Sequence record: NZ_CP037828.1
Strand: one strand, 5' to 3'
DNA length: 46,053 nt
Source: a plasmid
The notes beneath the pieces were generated by a model that made no database searches, had not been told where the DNA came from, and saw only the letters and a list, made by a program, of their open reading frames with translations. Position 1 is the stretch's first letter, and the number at the start of each line of letters is the position of its first letter. This document shows positions 3,446 through 44,009 of the stretch, piece by piece. Made by a program: the position numbers and the translations under genes.

Positions 3446-3499
3446 ATATACTCAAAAAGAGTTGGGACTTCAATAAATGAATGAGGGGAGATACTAAAG

Positions 3500-3985
3500 A
3501 TGGATTTAAAGTTAATTAGCAGCATACCTAATTGGAAGGTAGAAGATCAGTTGGCAAAAATTGATGAAGAGGTAACTGAGTTTAAAAATGCTATAGATAC
3601 AGGAATAACTAAAGATATAATTGCAGAAGGATTAGATGTTTGTCAAACTATTTTAACAATGTTTCAAGTTTTAGAAATAGAAAACTATATTACTGAAGGA
3701 GTAGAGACACATAATAAGAAACTAAATGGAAGAGGATGGGATCTCAAAGAAATAGGAGACGATATACTTAATTTAATTAAAAATTCAATGATTAATGAAT
3801 TGATTAATATGAACAAGAAATTAAAATGCCTTGATGAAAAAGAATTTAATGCAAAAATACAATTTTTAGATGTAGATAAACTATGGAATTTGTGCATGCC
3901 TTTAGTTAACTTAAGTACTATAAAAGGAGTTAATGAAAGCATTGATGAAATGAAAATGGGAGAGTTTCTAAAAAATATTAATTAA
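3500..3985 (+). CDS. Hypothetical protein
   Basis: ORF preceded by a GGGGAG RBS. No recognisable motif. Confidence 0.35.
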   Translation: MDLKLISSIPNWKVEDQLAKIDEEVTEFKNAIDTGITKDIIAEGLDVCQTILTMFQVLEIENYITEGVETHNKKLNGRGWDLKEIGDDILNLIKNSMINELINMNKKLKCLDEKEFNAKIQFLDVDKLWNLCMPLVNLSTIKGVNESIDEMKMGEFLKNIN

Positions 3986-4004
3986 AGTAAGGAGATAATA
4001 TAAT

Positions 4005-4262
4005 ATGTTGATAGAAGTAACTGAAAATAATAGAGAATTAAAAGTAGGAGATATTGTTGAAATTAATGGTGGTAATAAGTTATATATGATTCTTTCTTTA
4101 AAGGAAACAATAGGTGGGTATGTTATTATAAATATGCAGAATGGATATGGTTCATTTGGTGCTTATAAAAGTTTAAGTCAACTAGAATTAGACTTGAAGG
4201 TAAGAGGTTATAAATTATATAGTTCTGATGATTACAAGTTGCAATTAGTGCCTAGAGAATAA
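4005..4262 (+). CDS. Hypothetical small protein
   Basis: ORF preceded by an AAGGAG RBS. Confidence 0.35.
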   Translation: MLIEVTENNRELKVGDIVEINGGNKLYMILSLKETIGGYVIINMQNGYGSFGAYKSLSQLELDLKVRGYKLYSSDDYKLQLVPRE

Positions 4263-4370
4263 GATATATTTCAAAAAAGAAAAAAAGGAGCATTACTTCA
4301 CACTCCTGCTTGTCAAAATTCTAAAACCGTTATCACAACATCATTATAACATAATTAGGAGTGTGAGGTA

Positions 4371-4814
4371 ATGCAATCTAGCAAAAAAGACAATTTGTTT
4401 AGTAGTGCAGAAGGTAAGTTATATAATTATAAAAAAATAAAAGCGGAAATAGAAAAAATAGACATTGATATGCAGATGATAAAAAACGACTACAGAGGAT
4501 GTAGTGGAGTTGAAATTAAAGAAAAGACAAGCAAGACATATGATATTAAAAGTGTAATTGAAATAGAGACTGAAGAAAAAGAAAAGAAAATTGCCTTAAA
4601 AGAAAAAGAGAAGAGACATAAAGAGTTGATAATAGAAAAAATAGATAATGCAATGAAAATATTAAGTGAAGAAGAAAAAAAGATAGTACAGTATAAATAC
4701 TTTTCAAGTAGCAGGACATCTTGGGAATATGTTGGCAGAATGATTGGTTTTTCAGCGAGTAAGTGTAAGCAAATGAGGTTTGATATTATAGATAAGATAA
4801 AAGGATTGCTATAA
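4371..4814 (+). CDS. ArpU-family / sigma-70 region-4-like late transcriptional regulator
   Basis: About 147 aa, charged, with a C-terminal region-4-like HTH 'SWEYVGRMIGFSASKCKQMRFDIIDKIKGLL'. Lies just upstream of the packaging genes, as ArpU homologues do. Confidence 0.45.
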   Translation: MQSSKKDNLFSSAEGKLYNYKKIKAEIEKIDIDMQMIKNDYRGCSGVEIKEKTSKTYDIKSVIEIETEEKEKKIALKEKEKRHKELIIEKIDNAMKILSEEEKKIVQYKYFSSSRTSWEYVGRMIGFSASKCKQMRFDIIDKIKGLL

Positions 4815-29378: not shown

Positions 29379-30148
29379 ATGCTTAACATAGAAAAATATA
29401 AACTATACAATGGAAACTGTTTAGAAATAATGGATCTAATAGAAGATAAATCAATAGATTTAATTCTATGTGATCTTCCTTATGGCACAACTAATTGTAA
29501 ATGGGACACAATAATACCTTTCAAATCAATCTGGAATCAATATAATAGAATTATAAAAGATAATGGAGCTATAGTACTATTTTCAGCACAACCATTTACT
29601 ACTAGTTTGATAAATTCAAATATTAAAAACTATAAATATAGTTGGTACTGGATTAAAAATAAATCTACAGGATTCGCATTTTCTAAATACCAGCCACTTC
29701 GAAAAGTAGAAGATATTAATGTATTCTATAAAAAGCTCCTTTATACAATCCTCAAAACTTAGAAAAATTAGATAAACCTATTACATGTAAAAAGAAAAAT
29801 AAAAATAAAGATGGAATATATAGACATCATACTTTATCAAAAGAATATGTTCAAGAATATACAAATTATCCTAATAATACATTGTATTTTAATAAAGAAA
29901 CAAATTGCATCCATCCAGCTCAAAAGCCAGTAGATCTTTTAGAATATCTTATAAAAACTTATACAAACGAAAATGAACTTGTTTTGGATAATTGTTTTGG
30001 TTCTGGCAGTGTAGGAATAGCTTGTGCAAATATAAATAGAAAGTTTGTTGGAATAGAATTAGATAGCGATTATTTTCTTCAAGGTAAAAATAGAATTGAA
30101 AGAGCATACAGAAACAATGCAATTGACAAAAACATAGTAAAATCCTAA
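29379..30148 (+). pseudogene. N6-adenine/N4-cytosine DNA methyltransferase (beta class), interrupted by a -1 frameshift at an A AAA AAG run (about 29730-29736)
   Basis: Motif IV 'DLPY' (DPPY-like) lies in the 5' ORF. Motif I 'FGSGS' and 'HPAQKP' lie in the 3' ORF. The 3' frame is open from 29732. Confidence 0.65.
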
Positions 30149-31174: not shown

Positions 31175-32080
31175 TTATTTCATCATTTTTTTGTATCCTT
31201 TTGCATTTGCAAAAACATGTTTATCTACATCACTCATGACTATTATGCCAGGTATATTCTTTTTAAATGCTTCACCTAACAATTTAGCACCTCCACCCAT
31301 AACGACAACAGCAGAAGTTGATATTGGGTAATTTAATTTCAATTCATTATATATTTGTTTAAATAATCCAACAGACGCATCTATATTTTTCTTTATATCT
31401 TGTTTTTCACCATTTAGGTAAAACCCTTTGTCTATGTAGTCTTGTATTTTTTCTCTTTTTATCTCAACTTTACCCAGAAATCTTTCATCCATTTCAAGAG
31501 ATTTTTTTATTGCATCATATATATTTATCGTTCCAACATTTACAGAATATGGATCAGTCGCTTTATTCCCTTGTACAAGCGCAATATCTGTTGTCTTTCC
31601 ACCAATATCAACTAAAACAACATCTCTTCCTGCAATTTGGTCAACTATGTCTTTTGCATAATATAAGTATCCTGTAACTCCCTCTGGAAACACTTGAACA
31701 GATCTTATTGTTATATCTCTTTTAGTAGTTTCATTTCCTTTTGCAAATTCAACATGATATTCTTTTCCTTGTAATTTTTCAATCAAATCTTTTCTTAATC
31801 CTCCAAATTGCTTCACTGGTAGACCTAATGCTAGATCAATAACTTCATCATCTGTATTTCTGCATATAGCCCCAAGTAAAAGTGGTAAGAAGTTTTCTTT
31901 CTCATATTTAACTATATTTATTTCCTCGTCACCTTCGCCTAAATAATATGTTTTATTACCTATTTTAATGCTATCTGAATCTGAACCAAAGTTTTTTACC
32001 TCTGTAACTTTACTTTCAAAAATATCATCTGTACTTGTTTTAACTGCATAATTTCCAATATCTATACCTAATTTACTCAT
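31175..32080 (-). CDS. parM: ParM/StbA-family actin-like plasmid segregation ATPase
   Basis: Phosphate-1 'LGIDIGNYAVK', phosphate-2 'LVDIGGKTTDIALV', and the 'VVMGGGA' motif. Confidence 0.7.
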   Translation of the reverse strand: MSKLGIDIGNYAVKTSTDDIFESKVTEVKNFGSDSDSIKIGNKTYYLGEGDEEINIVKYEKENFLPLLLGAICRNTDDEVIDLALGLPVKQFGGLRKDLIEKLQGKEYHVEFAKGNETTKRDITIRSVQVFPEGVTGYLYYAKDIVDQIAGRDVVLVDIGGKTTDIALVQGNKATDPYSVNVGTINIYDAIKKSLEMDERFLGKVEIKREKIQDYIDKGFYLNGEKQDIKKNIDASVGLFKQIYNELKLNYPISTSAVVVMGGGAKLLGEAFKKNIPGIIVMSDVDKHVFANAKGYKKMMK

Positions 32081-33072: not shown

Positions 33073-33807
33073 TTAAGAGTTTGCACTACAATAATCAGAA
33101 AGCTTGTTCCACTCACAATCAACCCCTATTATTTTAAGAATATCATTGACTTGGCTATTTAAATCTTTAATATCTGATTTAGACATTAAAGGATCTTTCA
33201 TTATTTCATTTAGAAAAATACTATCAATGATTAAACATACATTTTCTGATAAATATTCACGTTTTACTGAGATTACTGTTCCAACTGTACTTTCTTTTAG
33301 TGTCTTATATGCTACACTCAATATGCATGGTTCTAAATTAATTCCTTCTAGTACTGTTTCAAAGTAATATTTTATTCTTATATTTTCATTTCCAATAAAT
33401 ATTTCTTCATTGCTGCTTATCTTCTTTAATTTTCTCATTATGCCTAACATCTTAGCATTCACTTCATAATTTATTCCATATCTCTTTGATGCCAAACTCG
33501 ACATTAAGTCTCTTTCTAAATAAATTACCCACTGACCATTATAGGAAAATGATGTTTTAGCGATATCCATTTCTCCTTTTCCAGTAATATTAAATTTAGG
33601 CTCTAGTTTATTTATTAAGTAAATCTCATAAAAATCCATAGTATATTTATTATCTAATTCCATATACTCAAGTCTTAAATTCTTATTACACCAATTTTCT
33701 TTTTTATTACTTAAATGACTAGCGTGTCTATCACAGATATTCTCTGTTTTCCCAACGTATAAACATTCTTCCGTATCTTGATTAATATATTTATAAACAT
33801 AATACAT
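33073..33807 (-). CDS. GIY-YIG domain protein, paralog A
   Basis: 'YVYKYI...ECLYVGKTENI..RH..H' and 'YLINKLEPKFN' GIY-YIG core residues. Confidence 0.6.
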   Translation of the reverse strand: MYYVYKYINQDTEECLYVGKTENICDRHASHLSNKKENWCNKNLRLEYMELDNKYTMDFYEIYLINKLEPKFNITGKGEMDIAKTSFSYNGQWVIYLERDLMSSLASKRYGINYEVNAKMLGIMRKLKKISSNEEIFIGNENIRIKYYFETVLEGINLEPCILSVAYKTLKESTVGTVISVKREYLSENVCLIIDSIFLNEIMKDPLMSKSDIKDLNSQVNDILKIIGVDCEWNKLSDYCSANS

Positions 33808-33826: not shown

Positions 33827-34627
33827 TTAATTGTCATATTTACAGCCCTTATATATTTCAAATAATTCTTGCCATGTATATCCAACTTCTAGTATGTGAA
33901 AAATATCCTCTATTTGTTGGAAAATCTCAGTAATTTTATATTCAAATGTTGGCATTAATTCCATTAAATTGGCCAAAGATCCAATCCTAATCTCTAATGT
34001 TATATTTATAAGTATTTTTTTATTTGTTGCTGTATATTCTTTCCATCTGGGATAAACTGAAATCAAAGAACAACTTCCAAATCTTTCTAATGTTTCAAAA
34101 TCATATGATATCAAATTAATATCTAATTCATTCTCACAAAATTCTATATCCATATTTTCAAAGTTATATAGCACACTTAAAACATTATTTTCATATAACA
34201 TTTCAACCTTGGCATCTAACTTTTCAATTCTCTTTAAAAAATTAATAGATTTTTTACTTACTTCATATTTCATATCTATCTTTCTTTCTCTGAATCTTCT
34301 TTTTCCCTTTGTCTTTTCCTTAAAATCTTCTTCTGAATATGTACTCCAATCTTCTTCCTTGTAATCAAAAAAGATGTGTTCAGTATCCATATCACCTTTA
34401 CTTAGTTTATTAAATATTGGATTTAGTTCATTTATTAAATAAACTTCAAAAAAATCCATATTATATCTACGTGGAAGTTCAATATATTTTAATATTAATT
34501 CTTTAGTACACCAATCTTCTTCTTTATTACTCAAATGAGATGAATGCCTTGCATATATATCTTCTGTTTTTCCAACGTATAAACATTCTTCTGTAGCTGG
34601 ATCAATATATTTATAAACATAATACAT
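33827..34627 (-). CDS. GIY-YIG domain protein, paralog B
   Basis: Same N-terminal GIY-YIG domain. About 75 bp of near-identical DNA at the 5' ends of both genes. Confidence 0.6.
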   Translation of the reverse strand: MYYVYKYIDPATEECLYVGKTEDIYARHSSHLSNKEEDWCTKELILKYIELPRRYNMDFFEVYLINELNPIFNKLSKGDMDTEHIFFDYKEEDWSTYSEEDFKEKTKGKRRFRERKIDMKYEVSKKSINFLKRIEKLDAKVEMLYENNVLSVLYNFENMDIEFCENELDINLISYDFETLERFGSCSLISVYPRWKEYTATNKKILINITLEIRIGSLANLMELMPTFEYKITEIFQQIEDIFHILEVGYTWQELFEIYKGCKYDN

Positions 34628-34646: not shown

Positions 34647-35834
34647 TTATTTATAGTAATATCCTTCTTCATTTACTAGACCTTGATCAAATAAATTTCT
34701 CCTAACAGTTTCAAGTCTGACAGGATCTTTGCTATAATCAACTTCTCTTTCTTCTTTTTTAACATCTTCATCATCCCAATATTTATCTAATTCTTCTTTA
34801 AACTTTAAATCATCTTTTTGATGAATTATAACTTCACTTATTTTATTTGAAAGTGTTGATTTAAAAAAATCATAATTCTTTGTATTTATAATATCAGTAT
34901 TATCTCTTTCAAATGCTATAGCAATAGACTTATTAAAAGCATTCAGATAAACATCTTTCTTAAAATCAAACTCTTTAAAATCTTCTTTAAATAGTTTAAT
35001 CGTCCCTGTTGTAAAAATATTTTCATTTGGTATATAAAAACTAAAAGACACTTCATTGTCCTGCTTCTTTTTAGGTATATAATCTTCAACCAATATATCT
35101 TTATCAAAATATTTTCTAGGTTCATAATCTATCACAGAAAAAATTATTTCATCTATTTTTCTATTTTTTCTTTTTTCTTCTTTTATTGAAACAACCATGT
35201 TGCCTTTTTTATTTATTTCATTCATTGCTCTTTTTAGAACATTTTGTTTAAAATATTTATACTCTGGATATACATTATCTTTTAATTTCAAATAAAATCT
35301 TAATTCATCTAACTTATATTTTATCTCCACTTCCTTATTTTCTCTGCTCCATAGTCTAAATAAAGTGTATAACCTCTGAGTATATGCACCTCTAAAATTA
35401 AATAACACTGATAAATTAATAGCTGTATATCCATTTTTCTTTTTCTGCATTTTTACAAAATCAGTTATATGATTGTATAGAACTTCATGCATCATAATTG
35501 TATAAATTTGGTCTGTATGATCCAATTCATATGTATTAATTAAACCACTTCCAAAAGTTTTTAACTTGCCAGTTGTCTCTTCTATATAGTCAAATTCCAA
35601 AACACTTTGTTGAAACATGTTCAAAATTTCTTTTATATTTTTATGCTCATAATCATTATTGTTTTTCATAAATACTTTTAGTTCTTCTTTTGATATAGTT
35701 GTAACATAAGATGAATTTTGCTGTTTCTGAGCATTAAAAAGTATTTTGTAAAATAATTTATTTTCCACATTTGTAAAATCATATTTACTTTTTATTAAAT
35801 TATTTGGTTGCATTAAAATTTCTTTTTTTTCCAA
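34647..35834 (-). CDS. Rep_3-family plasmid/theta replication initiator
   Basis: N-terminal 'QPNNLIKSKYDFTNVENKLFYKILFNAQ' typical of the Rep_3 family. Iterons lie directly upstream. Confidence 0.65.
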   Translation of the reverse strand: MEKKEILMQPNNLIKSKYDFTNVENKLFYKILFNAQKQQNSSYVTTISKEELKVFMKNNNDYEHKNIKEILNMFQQSVLEFDYIEETTGKLKTFGSGLINTYELDHTDQIYTIMMHEVLYNHITDFVKMQKKKNGYTAINLSVLFNFRGAYTQRLYTLFRLWSRENKEVEIKYKLDELRFYLKLKDNVYPEYKYFKQNVLKRAMNEINKKGNMVVSIKEEKRKNRKIDEIIFSVIDYEPRKYFDKDILVEDYIPKKKQDNEVSFSFYIPNENIFTTGTIKLFKEDFKEFDFKKDVYLNAFNKSIAIAFERDNTDIINTKNYDFFKSTLSNKISEVIIHQKDDLKFKEELDKYWDDEDVKKEEREVDYSKDPVRLETVRRNLFDQGLVNEEGYYYK

Positions 35835-38965: not shown

Positions 38966-39682
38966 GTGATAAGCTTGAAAATTTCAGATTTTAATAAAGA
39001 TCATATAGGTAAAGCGATTCAACTACAAGAGACAAGATTTAATGTCATAACGGATTGCATCATCACAGAAGTAGAAGTAGGCGAAATTGTTGTAATGTTT
39101 TACATGCAAGAAAATGATGACACAGGATACAAGGCTATAACATGGGAAGATTTAAAAAATTATATCATAAATGGCAAAGGGAAGAGGCATTATAGGATTT
39201 TTGTGGCTTGGGGGATTGTTATAAAAAGAGGTATAACCTCTTTTTATAACTCTTCATTTTTGATTTTTAGATATGCATTGTCAATTATTTTTTCTATCGC
39301 TTCTCTATCTTCATCTTCCAATGCAAATATCTTTTTTATCATAGTTTTTATTTCTTCACTAGTTTCTAAATCTTCTGTAATGTCAACGAACATTTCACCT
39401 TCTCCATGCAATAACCATTGTTCATTTACATTAAATTCTCTACAAATATCATTTATGGTTCTTTGTGGTATCTTTCTATGCCCTGTTTCATATGAAGAGA
39501 TTTGCGAAAGAGACAAACCTAATTTTTTGCCAAAATCTTTTTGTTTTAATTTCTTTGAAAGCCTTATATCTTTAAGTCGTTGTCTTCTTTCATTATCTTC
39601 TAAGTTTTGTTTTTCCATAACGTCACCCCTTATGAGTATAATTATAACATTTAAAAATACGCTTTGCAATTACAAATTTTAA
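38966..39682 (+). CDS. Small protein paralogous to the 39952 ORF; the reading frame runs on antisense to the module B XRE gene, so the real C-terminus is uncertain
   Basis: The first ~65 aa match 39952..40158. The C-terminus 'NYIINGKGKRHYRIFVAWG' resembles the end of the 40187 ORF. The remainder is low-complexity. Confidence 0.35.
   Translation: MISLKISDFNKDHIGKAIQLQETRFNVITDCIITEVEVGEIVVMFYMQENDDTGYKAITWEDLKNYIINGKGKRHYRIFVAWGIVIKRGITSFYNSSFLIFRYALSIIFSIASLSSSSNANIFFIIVFISSLVSKSSVMSTNISPSPCNNHCSFTLNSLQISFMVLCGIFLCPVSYEEICERDKPNFLPKSFCFNFFESLISLSRCLLSLSSKFCFSITSPLMSIIITFKNTLCNYKF
39244..39618 (-). CDS. XRE-family HTH repressor-like regulator (module B); start trimmed to 'MEKQN'
   Basis: HTH 'LKQKDFGKKLGLSLSQISSYETGHRK'. 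AAGGGGTGA RBS. Confidence 0.7.
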   Translation of the reverse strand: MEKQNLEDNERRQRLKDIRLSKKLKQKDFGKKLGLSLSQISSYETGHRKIPQRTINDICREFNVNEQWLLHGEGEMFVDITEDLETSEEIKTMIKKIFALEDEDREAIEKIIDNAYLKIKNEEL

Positions 39683-39951: not shown

Positions 39952-40158
39952 TTGACTTTTAATAAAAATCAAATAGGAACAGCAGTTCAATTACAAGATA
40001 TAAGGTTTGATACAAAAGTTGATTGCATCATTACAAAAGTAGAAAAGAATGAAATACTAGTCATGTATTATGAAAAAGAAACAGAGGAAATAGCATATAA
40101 AACTTTGACTAAAGAGGATCTAATACTTGATGATTACAAACTTAAGTTATTATATTAA
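39952..40158 (+). CDS. Small protein, paralog of the N-terminus of the 38966 ORF
   Basis: 'IGTAVQLQDIRFDTKVDCIITKVE' aligns with 'IGKAIQLQETRFNVITDCIITEVE'. Confidence 0.45.
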   Translation: MTFNKNQIGTAVQLQDIRFDTKVDCIITKVEKNEILVMYYEKETEEIAYKTLTKEDLILDDYKLKLLY

Positions 40159-40186: not shown

Positions 40187-40909
40187 ATGGATCTTTTGAA
40201 AGATGCAAGAAAAAAAGAATGGTTTTGGCTGGAAAATGATTTGGTGGATAGAGAGGATCTAAGTGTTTACGAAAAAATGGCTTATATGGTAATGGCAAGA
40301 TATTCAGATGATGAAAGTTCTTGTTTCCCAAGTTTATCATTAATATCCAAGAAAATGGGATGCGGAATAACGACTGTCAAAAAAACAATAAATAGTTTAG
40401 AAGAAAAAAATTTAATAATAAAAGTACATCGCAAGGTTAAAAACAAAAAGGAAAATGATACAAATGTTTATTACATTATGAGTTTGAAAGGTAAGTCGTC
40501 TGGCGACATAGGTCATGAGGCGACAGACGGTAGGTCGCCATACGACCAACAGGTAGGTCGCGAGGCGACTAGTAAAAAGACTTATAATAAAAAGACTTAT
40601 ATAAAAAGTAATACCACTCCACAAAATGAACCTAAAACTGATTATTTAGACCTATCATTTTTAGATTTAGATATAGAAAAAGTAAAACTAACTAAAGATG
40701 AATATGACAAACTTATAAGCAAGTTTGGGAAGAAATACATACATGATAAAATTGTTAGTTTAGAAAACTATATCATAAATGGTAAAGGGAGTAGGTATAA
40801 GAGCCACTATAGGGCTTTGCTGACTTGGGGGAATGGAGATGCTAGTAAAGGTATAGTACCAGAAGTTACAAAGACTAAGAATCCTCTTAGTGGATTTAAA
40901 GAACTTTAA
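40187..40909 (+). CDS. Replisome organizer / DnaD-like replication protein with an internal GC-rich repeat island
   Basis: Winged-helix 'FPSLSLISKKMGCGITTVKKTINSLEEKNLI'. Lies upstream of the helicase gene. Confidence 0.5.
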   Translation: MDLLKDARKKEWFWLENDLVDREDLSVYEKMAYMVMARYSDDESSCFPSLSLISKKMGCGITTVKKTINSLEEKNLIIKVHRKVKNKKENDTNVYYIMSLKGKSSGDIGHEATDGRSPYDQQVGREATSKKTYNKKTYIKSNTTPQNEPKTDYLDLSFLDLDIEKVKLTKDEYDKLISKFGKKYIHDKIVSLENYIINGKGSRYKSHYRALLTWGNGDASKGIVPEVTKTKNPLSGFKEL

Positions 40910-41122: not shown

Positions 41123-41147
41123 TTAAGTATAAATTAGGAGGTTGCCT

Positions 41148-41366
41148 ATGAAAGATGAAAAGTTAGAACTTACTGAAAAAGATTTACACTGTATTGCAAG
41201 ACATTTACAAAATGAAGTTATGGAGATGGTGTTTAGAGGGAATATAGAAGCCCCTACATCATGCGAAGTTTGCGATTACTTGCAAGAATGCAAGGACTAT
41301 TTCACCCATATAGACACTTTTATAAAATTAAGTGAAATGACAGGTGTAGATATTTTTACTAAATAA
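41148..41366 (+). CDS. Small HC..H/CxxC protein, copy 1
   Basis: 'LHCIARH...TSCEVCDYLQEC'. AGGAGG RBS. Paralog of the 41760 ORF. Confidence 0.45.
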   Translation: MKDEKLELTEKDLHCIARHLQNEVMEMVFRGNIEAPTSCEVCDYLQECKDYFTHIDTFIKLSEMTGVDIFTK

Positions 41367-41384
41367 ATTTAGTAAATTAAAATT

Positions 41385-41603
41385 TTAGTATTGTAATTGA
41401 CGTGCTTTTTTAAAAAGAGGACAGTTGCTATTAGCAGTCATTATTTGAATTTTGCAAATGTAATTTTTATTACATTCGCATTCTAAAAGTTTTGATCCAG
41501 TGAATCCAGGAAAAGTTTTATATTCACCAGAAAATTCAACTTTATCGTCAATAAGAGAGCATTTTTCTCTTAAGGTTTTAATTTTGCACATATTCATCAC
41601 CAC
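41385..41603 (-). CDS. Cys-rich small protein, copy 1 (convergent partner)
   Basis: Six Cys. Shared 'EY..PG.TGSKL...C...IC....CP.FKK' pattern with the 42013 ORF. Confidence 0.4.
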   Translation of the reverse strand: MVMNMCKIKTLREKCSLIDDKVEFSGEYKTFPGFTGSKLLECECNKNYICKIQIMTANSNCPLFKKARQLQY

Positions 41604-41759
41604 CCTATAATTGATTTGAACATACTGTCAATATGCTCCAATTAATTATAACATGCAAATTATCATGGTGTAGAATTAAAGCATAGGTCAATTAAATTTA
41701 GTTATAAAATCAATGAAACAGATAAAGAATTAAATGTTAAATAAATTAGGGGGTTGTTC

Positions 41760-42020
41760 ATGAAAGAGGAAAAGTTAGAACTTACTGAAAAAGAATTGCA
41801 TTGTATTGCAAGACATTTGCAAAATGAAGTTATGGAGATGGTGTTTAGAGGGAATAGAGAAGCCCCCACATCATGTGAAGTTTGCGATTACCTGCAAGAA
41901 TGTGAGGGAGATTTTACCTGTATGTATCATTCTTTTACTAAATTAAGCAAAATAACAGGTGTAAAAGTGACTGCATTTAAGTATTGTTTTCCAGATGAAA
42001 ATCCCAAAGCTACTATCTAA
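41760..42020 (+). CDS. Small HC..H/CxxC protein, copy 2
   Basis: First 50 aa nearly identical to copy 1. Confidence 0.45.
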   Translation: MKEEKLELTEKELHCIARHLQNEVMEMVFRGNREAPTSCEVCDYLQECEGDFTCMYHSFTKLSKITGVKVTAFKYCFPDENPKATI

Positions 42021-42201
42021 GAAGTTTTTTTAGAATAGGACATTCTTCATTAGAAGAAGAGTCGCAAATATGACTTCCATCACATCTAGTTGACATTAAC
42101 TTAGATCCAAAAGTACCTGGAGGAGCTGAATATTCGCAAGTAAGAGAAATGGTTTCGTTTATTACAGGACATTCTTTGCTTATAACTCGATATTGGCTCA
42201 T
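42013..42201 (-). CDS. Cys-rich small protein, copy 2 (convergent partner)
   Basis: Paralog of the 41385 ORF. Conserved promoter block upstream. Confidence 0.4.
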   Translation of the reverse strand: MSQYRVISKECPVINETISLTCEYSAPPGTFGSKLMSTRCDGSHICDSSSNEECPILKKLLR

Positions 42202-42338
42202 ACTCTCACCACCTTTCTAATTAATTTAAACATATTGGAAGTATGTTTAAATTAATTATAGCATGTAAATTATCATGGTGTAGAATAGTTTCAAATCAAA
42301 AGAAGCAACTAAATAGTTAAAGACAGGAGGTATGCTAA

Positions 42339-42656
42339 GTGGAAAGAAAAAAACATGAACTTACAGATCAAGATATACAAAGACTTATTGAAGGATTAAG
42401 AACTGATCCAAAAATAAGAGAAATGATATTTGAAAGTAAAGGTTGTGAAACTAGAACAAGTACAAGAAGTAAATGCGAACAATTTGTTGAAGAAAAACTT
42501 GCTTATAGAAGTTATGGATTTGAAACTCCAAAATACTATGCAAAACTTATTGCCGACATAATTGATATTTTAGTTTACAAAAATGTTCCAAGAGATCGTA
42601 TTTGTGGGGTATTGTATGACGTCGAAAGGGTGATTCCTTTAGTTGTGACATTTTAA
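42339..42656 (+). CDS. Hypothetical protein
   Basis: ORF with RBS. Confidence 0.3.
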   Translation: MERKKHELTDQDIQRLIEGLRTDPKIREMIFESKGCETRTSTRSKCEQFVEEKLAYRSYGFETPKYYAKLIADIIDILVYKNVPRDRICGVLYDVERVIPLVVTF

Positions 42657-42677: not shown

Positions 42678-44009
42678 ATGAATTACTCTTTAGAAGCAGA
42701 GCAAAACATTCTAGGAAGTTTTCTTATAAATGACTCTATAGGTTACAAAATAAGGGAATTAAAAGAAAATGATTTCTACTTTGAGTCACATAAAATTATT
42801 TTATCTTGCATGAAGAAAATAATTGACTCAAATAAACCACTAGATCTTTTGCTTTTAAAAAATGAATTAGAAAAAATAGATAGATTAGTAGACGTTGGAG
42901 GAGTTAGTTACATTACCAGTTTAACAACTATAGTCATAACTACTTCAAACATAGATCACTATATAAAAATCATAAAAGAGAAGTTACTTAAAAGACAAAT
43001 TTCAGAGCTAGCAAATGAATTAATTAATAATTCAAATTCAGATACAAGTATAGATGAATTGATTGTAGATATAAACGATTTAAAAGCACTTGTGACGACG
43101 AGCAGTAGTATAAATGGTAATTATATTGACGCATCAAAAATAAAACGTGAAAAAGGCGTACACAAGTCCATAGACACGGGTTTTAATAAACTAAACAATA
43201 TGCTAGATGGATTTAGATATGGAACTCTTACAATTTTGACTGGTAAACCTGCATCTGGTAAATCAACTATAGTTAACCAGTTTATAGCAGAAGCAATTGC
43301 AAATAAAGAAAAAGCATTTTTGTATTCTGGAGAATTACCCTCTTTCATGGCTATGGATTGGTTTAGAAAAACTGTAGCTAATGATTATCACATAAAAGAA
43401 TATAAAAGTGTCTATGGAGGAACATACACAGATATTCCAGATTACGCCGTTGAGCTTATATCAGACTGGATAGAAGATAAATTTTTTCTCTATGATGAAG
43501 ATGCAATAAGTGATGAAGTAAATCTACTAAATACCATAGAACATTTATATTTAAAAAAAGGGGTTAGGCTCTTTGTTCTTGACAATCTAATGACAATAAA
43601 AACTGGCAATAAGGCAGATAAATATGAGAGACAAGAGCAGATAGTAAGCAACTTAAAAAATCTCGCTAAAAAATATAACTTAGTAATAGTTTTAGTTGCA
43701 CATCCTAGAAAAAATATGGGTGACATGAAACCAACTATGTATGATGTGTCTGGAGCAAGTGAGATTGTTAATTATGCAGATTATATTTTATCAACTTACA
43801 GAGTTATTGATGAAGAAGAAGAGGCAGACGACACTTATTTATTAATTTTAAAAAATAGAATAACAGGAAAACAGAATATAAGTTTCAAAATGAATTTTTC
43901 AGAAAGAAGAAAAAGACTTTACACAACTAGTGAAGAGTTAAATAGAGATTACAAATATGATGTAAATAAACAATATGTGCAAGCAGAAATTCCAGAAGAT
44001 GTATTTTAA
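42678..44009 (+). CDS. dnaB: Replicative DNA helicase, DnaB family
   Basis: DnaB N-terminal 'EAEQNILGSFLIND'. Walker A 'GKPASGKST'. Walker B 'LFVLDNL'. Confidence 0.85.
   Translation: MNYSLEAEQNILGSFLINDSIGYKIRELKENDFYFESHKIILSCMKKIIDSNKPLDLLLLKNELEKIDRLVDVGGVSYITSLTTIVITTSNIDHYIKIIKEKLLKRQISELANELINNSNSDTSIDELIVDINDLKALVTTSSSINGNYIDASKIKREKGVHKSIDTGFNKLNNMLDGFRYGTLTILTGKPASGKSTIVNQFIAEAIANKEKAFLYSGELPSFMAMDWFRKTVANDYHIKEYKSVYGGTYTDIPDYAVELISDWIEDKFFLYDEDAISDEVNLLNTIEHLYLKKGVRLFVLDNLMTIKTGNKADKYERQEQIVSNLKNLAKKYNLVIVLVAHPRKNMGDMKPTMYDVSGASEIVNYADYILSTYRVIDEEEEADDTYLLILKNRITGKQNISFKMNFSERRKRLYTTSEELNRDYKYDVNKQYVQAEIPEDVF

Follow-up and report, generated by a model that had tools for sequence, protein, structure and literature searches.

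The DNA analyzed here (the window: 46,053 nucleotides of sequence record NZ_CP037828.1, given as one strand) is a pCDBI1-like phage-plasmid of Clostridioides difficile, and between its replication initiator and DnaB helicase genes it carries two tandem cassettes of small genes. In each cassette, a gene that we call A faces a gene that we call B on the opposite strand, and each B gene is preceded by a leader with a predicted promoter and a palindrome. The features of this block and its flanks are as follows (RBS, ribosome-binding site; SD, Shine-Dalgarno sequence; ORF, open reading frame).

40187-40909: replication initiator gene (HTH_36, phrog_270)
41148-41366, + strand: gene A1, ORF of 72 aa (phrog_1664, E = 2e-37), with RBS AGGAGG at 41136-41141
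41385-41591, − strand: gene B1, ORF of 68 aa (phrog_2560, E = 2e-44), with SD GGGTGGTGA 5 nt before the ATG
41592-41677, − strand: B1 leader, with predicted −35 TCTACA at 41674..41669, 18-nt spacer, extended −10 TGTTATAAT (−10 at 41650..41645), and SD at 41597-41605
41608-41624 and 41632-41648: arms of the imperfect B1 palindrome, with a 7-nt center (inverted-repeat search)
41760-42020, + strand: gene A2, ORF of 86 aa (phrog_1664, E = 6e-39), with a C-terminal tail unlike that of A1, overlapping the 3' end of B2
42013-42201, − strand: gene B2, ORF of 62 aa (phrog_2560, E = 1e-34), with SD AAGGTGGTGA 5 nt before the ATG
42202-42284, − strand: B2 leader, with predicted −35 TCTACA at 42284..42279, extended −10 TGCTATAAT (−10 at 42260..42255), and SD at 42207-42215
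42218-42234 and 42242-42258: perfect 17-bp arms of the B2 palindrome, centered on 42235-42241 (inverted-repeat search)
42678-44009: DnaB helicase gene, flanking the cassettes

The two tandem convergent cassettes had been described in an initial annotation made from the letters alone, and all of their features lay where it had placed them. It also had the facing genes overlapping at their 3' ends, which is true of A2 and B2 (by 8 nt) but not of A1 and B1, the stop codons of which are 18 nt apart. A1 has the orientation of the early/replication operon. Both A genes are preceded by an AGGAGG/GGGGG site, and both B genes have the same RBS, GGTGGTGA, 5 nt ahead of the ATG. For B1, the 68-aa ATG form has proper SD spacing and matches the RefSeq call; the 72-aa GTG form, reaching 41603, is a mechanical ORF. 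The region is 97% identical in circular C. difficile plasmids of 45 to 48 kb, including those of BI1 and ATCC 9689, and in the RefSeq annotation of these plasmids all four small genes are hypothetical proteins. A and B gave full-length significant matches to phrog_1664 and phrog_2560, respectively, both of which are labeled "unknown function" in PHROGs.

The A proteins share a conserved core of ~70 aa with three invariant Cys residues (C15, C39, and C42) and a fourth Cys at a variable position. As first noted, the two A copies are nearly identical over their early part, whereas their B partners have diverged: 45 of the 48 N-terminal residues of A1 and A2 are equal, with a 183-nt stretch at 89% identity and 75% identity overall, and B1 and B2 are 32% identical. 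Identical copies of B1 (100%) occur in 10 viral contigs. The B proteins are 62 to 70 aa long and have the pattern C-x28-30-C-x4-5-C-x6-10-C-[P/E], which is kept in distant homologues. They had been called six-Cys peptides, but although B1 has six Cys residues, B2 has five, and the conserved ones are four in number (C11, C40, C46, and C54 in B2 numbering). A and B are both hydrophilic, with no consistent charge; the grand average of hydropathicity (GRAVY) of B ranges from −0.97 to +0.14, and hydrophobic stretches are not apparent in its sequences. Judging from their Cys patterns, both A and B may bind metal. In prophages of other Clostridia (loci L024 [3995-4606, + strand], L030, L031, L033, and L074 of those that we fetched), the A domain forms the N-terminal part of proteins of 109 to 203 aa, with unrelated C-terminal extensions.

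Neither family had been recognized initially, and we likewise found no match of known function: searches with A, B, and expanded alignments against Pfam, NCBIfam, PADLOC, and PDB sequence profiles gave nothing significant, and a search of the region against Rfam gave sub-threshold noise only. One of 11 A members, A1, matched the anti-sigma-F factor Fin (E = 0.055; score of 13.9 bits, with a cut-off of 95); this match was attributed to chance, as were weak matches to the KTSC domain, the RPB9 zinc ribbon, and SPASM. A has the C-x2-C part of the zinc anti-sigma (ZAS) motif H-x3-C-x2-C without the upstream His at −4. B gave no NCBIfam match to SCIFF, and there is no radical S-adenosylmethionine (SAM) gene among its neighbors. 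No paper on these genes or on their pairing was found in open-access text, and PHROGs does not record the pairing.

Several genomes and 45 viral contigs have homologues of A, and the sites that these genes occupy vary widely among genomes. When the 2550 ORFs of all fetched loci were scanned with a B-family profile, diverged homologues of B were recovered in which the four Cys residues are retained; without exception, these ORFs adjoin the 3' end of an A gene and are encoded on the other strand. The phiCD119-like ORFs were detected in the first pass at E values of ~1e-8, and those of L072 and L074 at ~1e-3; after one iteration, L058/L068 were detected at 3e-6 and L067 at ~1e-3. The loci, with flanking genes confirmed with PHROGs, are as follows.

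L056, L058, L060, L064, L068, and L078, phiCD119-like myophage prophages: pair between an XkdP-like gene and a tail gene
L072, phiC2-like prophage: pair after an XkdN-like tail gene
L074/L077, prophage of ~42% GC: pair between the terminase large subunit and portal genes
L067: pair adjoining helix-turn-helix (HTH) regulators
L069: B-like frame without a canonical start, after the tape measure gene

The B frame of L069 may be decaying. The terminase-portal slot also holds related A genes in Lachnospiraceae/Eubacterium genomes (L030, L031, and L033). Among Clostridial phages, the convergent A/B pair was found in no fewer than five distinct genomic settings, with a distance from A stop to B stop of +19 to about −90 nt; this recurrence supports the initial proposal that the cassette is a paired, non-structural module, which a lack of the pairing in related elements would have refuted. 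A always has the orientation of the host phage operon, and its only upstream signal is an RBS. In temperate Clostridial phages, the facing genes A and B make up an accessory module that is conserved, mobile, and not structural.

Within this module, B depends on the presence of A, and not the reverse. The one case of B without an A neighbor is L037, a 1.9-kb contig carrying the most distant member of the B family. A without B was seen in phiCD119 (which has two tandem A copies), phiC2, phiMMP01/03, CDHM19, CD1801, and several prophages, and this wide occurrence argues that A has a B-independent role. Comparison of phiCD119 with L056 revealed clean presence/absence of a B unit of ~200 to 250 bp that comprises the coding sequence, SD, and promoter region. 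Phage-plasmids carry 0, 1, or 2 cassettes: among elements related to the window, some have both, some have just A1-B1, and in others a lone A gene directly precedes the next gene. Gain and loss of B involve the whole unit, and in the window the module is duplicated with two different B alleles. The tail-module stretches concerned are 3495-3752 in phiCD119 (L025, which, like phiC2, lacks a B gene) versus 3496-3693 in L056, and 3228-3437 in L072.

In the collections searched, B units were found in prophage or plasmid sequences only. The cultured phages gave no match by megablast and just a 47-nt A-core match by blastn, and among 50,697 phage records, tblastn with B1 and two distant types of B matched none. 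Word-indexed protein searches returned close C. difficile relatives only, and an exhaustive hidden Markov model (HMM) search of 1.84 billion representatives with a narrow B profile returned five clusters only; the diverged B homologues were recovered only via ORFs next to A genes. The tail-module B homologues of the phiCD119-like and phiC2-like prophages were not recovered by the large protein-database searches.

In several of these respects the B unit resembles a moron: it has its own predicted promoter and SD, sits within early or late operons at classic insertion sites, and is present or absent between otherwise syntenic phages (phiCD119 versus L056; 0 to 2 cassettes). Unlike morons, it is antisense to the operon and tied to an operon-oriented A, with no terminator found, and its leader is far more conserved than its coding sequence.

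The cassettes had also been described as embedded between replication genes. This is true of the window, but the link to replication is incidental, the pair lying elsewhere in tail and packaging modules. The same distribution bears on the idea that the palindromes and repeats are a replication origin and the small ORFs incidental. The position of the region between an initiator (HTH_36, phrog_270) and DnaB, its AT richness, and its repeats speak for an origin, but sister elements L021 and L022 have the same initiator and helicase with the block altogether absent, which effectively excludes an origin; furthermore, the same unit recurs in tail and packaging modules, no iterons were found, and the ORFs are conserved as proteins. 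We regard this idea as almost certainly incorrect.

The two best sigma-70-type sites of the region in a promoter scan are the predicted B promoters, each TCTACA-18-TATAAT with an upstream TG and 10 of 12 matches. A conserved block of ~40 bp upstream of each B gene, and a −35/−10 region overlapping a palindrome, were among the features first noted, and both were found to extend further than described. The block (41640-41676 and 42246-42282) is identical at 35 of 37 positions and is part of a leader of ~81 nt, and the copy-2 palindrome, with its 17-bp arms, is larger than claimed. The 18-mer core of the block has two sites only in the 46 kb, against a chance expectation of 0.12. Across 11 cassettes with five B allele types, 58 of the 81 leader positions are invariant, and between different alleles the p-distance of the leader is 0.04 to 0.17, compared with a proportion of synonymous differences (pS) of 0.24 to 0.68, indicating that the leader is under stronger constraint than silent sites.

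The palindrome was not found elsewhere in the window, in the immunity region, or in loci without B, nor were its half-sites in the rest of the window or in the immunity region, and the palindrome is unlike the inverted repeats of the immunity region. The lack of half-sites in the window and immunity region means that control by the phage repressor is not indicated. Considered as an RNA hairpin, the palindrome is 97% paired with one compensatory pair, no better than shuffled controls in a covariation test. Its left arm begins inside the −10 box and would lie mostly upstream of the expected transcription start, which would favor an operator. The center of the B2-type palindrome (CTTCCAA on the − strand, 42235-42241) is the reverse complement of the center in the other alleles (TTGRCAG versus TTGGAAG; 41625-41631), and it looks as if the spacer has been flipped between the arms in B2-type cassettes. 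A + strand promoter-like site facing the B1 promoter across the palindrome (41583-41611, TTTGCA-17-TATAAT, 10 of 12 matches) was set aside, since its counterpart in the other alleles is not conserved.

The same signals accompany B in some of the other phages. In common with the window cassettes, the phiC2-like B unit has the 16-nt motif CATGCTATAATTAATT (extended −10) and a palindrome arranged in the same way, although the B proteins are just 26% identical (alignment A6), and both the phage-plasmid and the phiC2-like units have a long palindrome across the −10/start region. The phiCD119-like B units have a TG-TAAAAT box with a shorter palindrome over the box. Promoter, SD, and palindrome signals were not evident in L067 and L074.

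No terminator-like site was found between A and B or downstream of B. Lambdoid phages have antisense promoters (oop and paQ) that modulate lytic operons, and the B promoter, predicted to fire against an early operon near replication genes, resembles them. The unit might be a cis-antisense device in which transcription from the B promoter damps leaky or early expression of A and its operon (here from the initiator to DnaB), with the B peptide secondary. Conservation in the unit is greatest in the leader and promoter, where it exceeds that of synonymous sites, and least in the B coding region; B always opposes the direction of the operon, and there is no terminator between the genes. However, unlike those of oop and paQ, the B transcript encodes a conserved protein: the B frame, its four Cys residues, its SD, and an omega (dN/dS) below 1 persist across lineages at 20 to 30% identity and in different hosts, which speaks for a functional B protein. 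The unit is also optional (0 to 2 copies), mobile, and found in late operons as well, so that it is not a core regulatory element, and a purely antisense role leaves unexplained why B is constantly adjacent to A and not to other operon genes. We consider such a device quite unlikely.

Alignment of five allele types within the phage-plasmid family gave mean pairwise nucleotide identities of 78 to 90% for the A core, 55 to 63% for the B coding region, and 80 to 95% for the B leader. The five types of B allele are 31 to 61% identical to one another, and their combinations have been shuffled among elements (B1 with B2, the P0019 type with the P0021 type, and singles). By the Nei-Gojobori method, the A core has an omega of 0.05 to 0.23 at a dS of 0.4 to 1.7 (for A1 versus A2, dS is 0.41 and dN is 0.09), and B has an omega of 0.3 to 0.83 at a similar dS. 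The similar dS implies that the two genes are equally old, and the low omega of A at a dS of 0.41 implies that the likeness of A1 and A2 arises from purifying selection and not from recent copying or homogenization. By these estimates, the B protein sequence changes several times faster than that of A.

In about half of the relatives with two cassettes (L002, L008 to L010, L016, and L018 to L020), a one-base change shifts the B2 frame while A2 is intact. The site is a homopolymer at 42024-42030 (T7 on the + strand, A7 on the − strand) that encodes the C-terminal Lys-Lys, and the frameshifted product is an 85-aa protein with a new tail. The change could represent decay, phase-variation-like slippage, or assembly error.

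These distributions bear on whether the pair is an addiction module for phage-plasmid inheritance, with B as a stable toxin and either A or the antisense 3' RNA of A and its operon as a labile antidote, an idea close to the initial suggestion of a toxin-antitoxin (TA)-like module. Phage-plasmids commonly carry addiction modules, and this element is extrachromosomal, with a partition gene and no detected integrase. The asymmetry whereby B is not found alone (L037 apart) and A can be is that of toxin and antitoxin, and the convergent overlapping layout resembles type I systems: like the type I TA systems of C. difficile prophages, the pair consists of small, convergent genes on mobile elements with overlapping 3' ends, and pairing of sense and antisense RNAs would be expected from the abutting or overlapping ends with no terminator-like site between them. 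Unlike type I systems, however, both partners are conserved proteins, A and B have no sequence similarity to the known families, and B is hydrophilic, with four Cys residues and no membrane helix. Unlike type II systems, A and B are convergent at every locus examined, not co-directional, and are not co-transcribed, and neither toxin or antitoxin homology nor a DNA-binding antitoxin domain was found in Pfam, NCBIfam, PADLOC, or PDB searches. Integrated prophages of myophage and siphophage-like types also have the pair, in their tail and packaging modules, and addiction to a plasmid has no bearing there; A and the B allele do not covary; and many relatives have a frameshifted B2 with an intact A2, and there are sister plasmids without the cassette. 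A classical TA operon is thus not what we find here (the genes are convergent, B has no hydrophobic segment, and neither homology nor A/B covariation was seen), and an addiction role seems improbable to us. The regulatory or anti-defense roles also suggested initially are conceivable.

The reading that we prefer, tentatively and with somewhat less than an even chance of being correct, is an effector/antidote switch in which B is the effector and A is its operon-encoded partner or antidote. The orientation of B against the operon, its operon-independent predicted promoter, and the lack of a terminator before A together suggest that B is expressed when the operon is silent. B would be transcribed from its own sigma-A promoter in lysogeny or the plasmid state, as long as there is no transcription of the phage operon around it; restraint would come from a dimeric repressor, possibly B itself or a host factor, bound to the palindrome. 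Firing of the operon would then shut B off by promoter collision and antisense pairing, as might be expected where no terminator separates A and B. The B protein would be a metal-binding effector in an arms race, acting, for example, in the exclusion of competing phages or on another host or phage target, and A, conserved and made from the lytic operon, would be its partner or antidote. In other phages, A genes without B could then serve as stand-alone countermeasures, and two cassettes with different B alleles would give wider specificity. The tandem could have arisen, and could contract, via unequal recombination between A cores or leaders.

In some ways, this arrangement recalls anti-CRISPR/anti-CRISPR-associated (Acr-Aca) loci, in which an inverted repeat likewise overlaps a strong promoter (here predicted, with 17-bp arms abutting and overlapping the −10), a fast-diversifying small protein lies beside a conserved small protein, and the locus is mobile among genome positions. 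Unlike an Aca gene, A has no HTH match, faces the effector, and is not co-transcribed with it, and the pair is not known to have anti-defense activity.

Several observations weigh against the effector/antidote switch. The mid-region type of A ("THID" or "TCMYHS") pairs with either B clade and does not covary with the B allele, which would be unexpected for a specific protein antidote, and A is conserved while B diversifies. The frameshifted B2 C terminus in about half of the two-cassette relatives may mean that B2 is dispensable. No candidate repressor for the palindrome was identified, and, with no covariation beyond conservation, a DNA operator and a 5' RNA stem are indistinguishable. The structure predictions for the proteins were of low confidence (predicted local distance difference test [pLDDT] scores of 64 and 52), with no fold match. 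Finally, most loci were fetched through A or B homologues, which limits the neutrality of the association test, and annotators often miss B genes, such that the near-absence of B alone may partly reflect the searchable set.

The roles could also be reversed, with A an active, potentially harmful lytic-cycle factor, for example one of host takeover or counter-defense, and the B unit a safety catch that restrains it in the lysogen via antisense RNA, binding to A, or both. A is conserved, widespread, and located at accessory-gene sites, and it occurs without B in cultured lytic-competent phages, with B units confined to the prophage and plasmid sequences of the collections searched; the predicted independence of the B promoter from the operon would also suit such a role. 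Yet many prophages tolerate A without B, and the fast divergence of B is hard to square with binding to a near-constant A core. We view this reversal as rather doubtful.

A more specific form of the effector/antidote switch, which we consider fairly unlikely, is that the pair represents a new class of convergently coupled module made of mini-proteins that both bind metal: B, diversifying rapidly and expressed in the lysogen, would be an effector of exclusion or defense, A would be the release factor of the phage itself, and solo A genes in lytic-competent phages would counter B lysogens. If so, phages of C. difficile and related gut Clostridia would be engaged, through the module, in an arms race with one another.

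Although the two families were already cataloged, the recurrence of the pair elsewhere, the asymmetry between A and B, the contrast in selection, and the conservation of the leader are new here. Prophages and phage-plasmids shape the virulence and epidemiology of C. difficile, and the majority of the small genes in these elements have no annotation or are labeled "hypothetical." The unit described here is widespread among mobile elements of C. difficile, other gut Clostridia have it as well, and its anatomy (promoter, operator, four-Cys scaffold, and convergent partner) is now defined, as predicted from sequence. Should B prove to act in exclusion, defense, or addiction, with A as its antidote, the module would offer a handle on phage-phage competition, phage-plasmid maintenance, and the host range of therapeutic phages, the last of these being concerned because cultured C. 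difficile phages carry A only. The 81-nt leader is a candidate regulatory part, combining promoter and operator, for C. difficile genetics.

The initial annotation had placed the cassettes in a prophage setting, but the element is an extrachromosomal phage-plasmid and not an integrated prophage: no integrase was detected among the window ORFs scanned, and extrachromosomal prophages of this type are known as active phages in C. difficile (PMC10993401). Besides virion, tail, and lysis genes and two repressor-like genes, the window contains the following.

64-648, + strand: phage-encoded RNA polymerase sigma factor (phrog_351), directly upstream of the structural genes
31175-32080, − strand: partition protein (phrog_691)
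34647-35834, − strand: plasmid-type initiator-like gene (phrog_2172/4402)
42339-42656, + strand: gene C, 105 aa (phrog_3632), the next gene after the cassettes

The sigma factor presumably serves late transcription. The N terminus of gene C has an A-like "ELT[DE]xD[IL]" segment but lacks the Cys residues, and relatives of gene C vary by internal insertions (105 to 153 aa). A and gene C were considered as paralogues and rejected, as hhalign aligned just 23 N-terminal residues with a probability of 22%.

Elsewhere in the window, two adjacent paralogues (33073-33807 and 33827-34627, both on the − strand) match phrog_2937 (labeled "unknown function") over their full length and are weakly endonuclease-like at the N terminus. 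A 127-aa ORF (29379-29762, + strand) matches only positions 120 to 249 of the 743-position DNA methyltransferase profile phrog_67 and could be a methyltransferase fragment or a stand-alone domain. The family phrog_1564 is matched both by the N terminus of a 238-aa ORF (38966-39682, + strand) and by the whole of a 68-aa ORF (39952-40158, + strand), and a 24-residue stretch of the 238-aa ORF (39152-39214) is 62% identical to residues 192 to 215 of the initiator; these matches point to domain shuffling within the early region.

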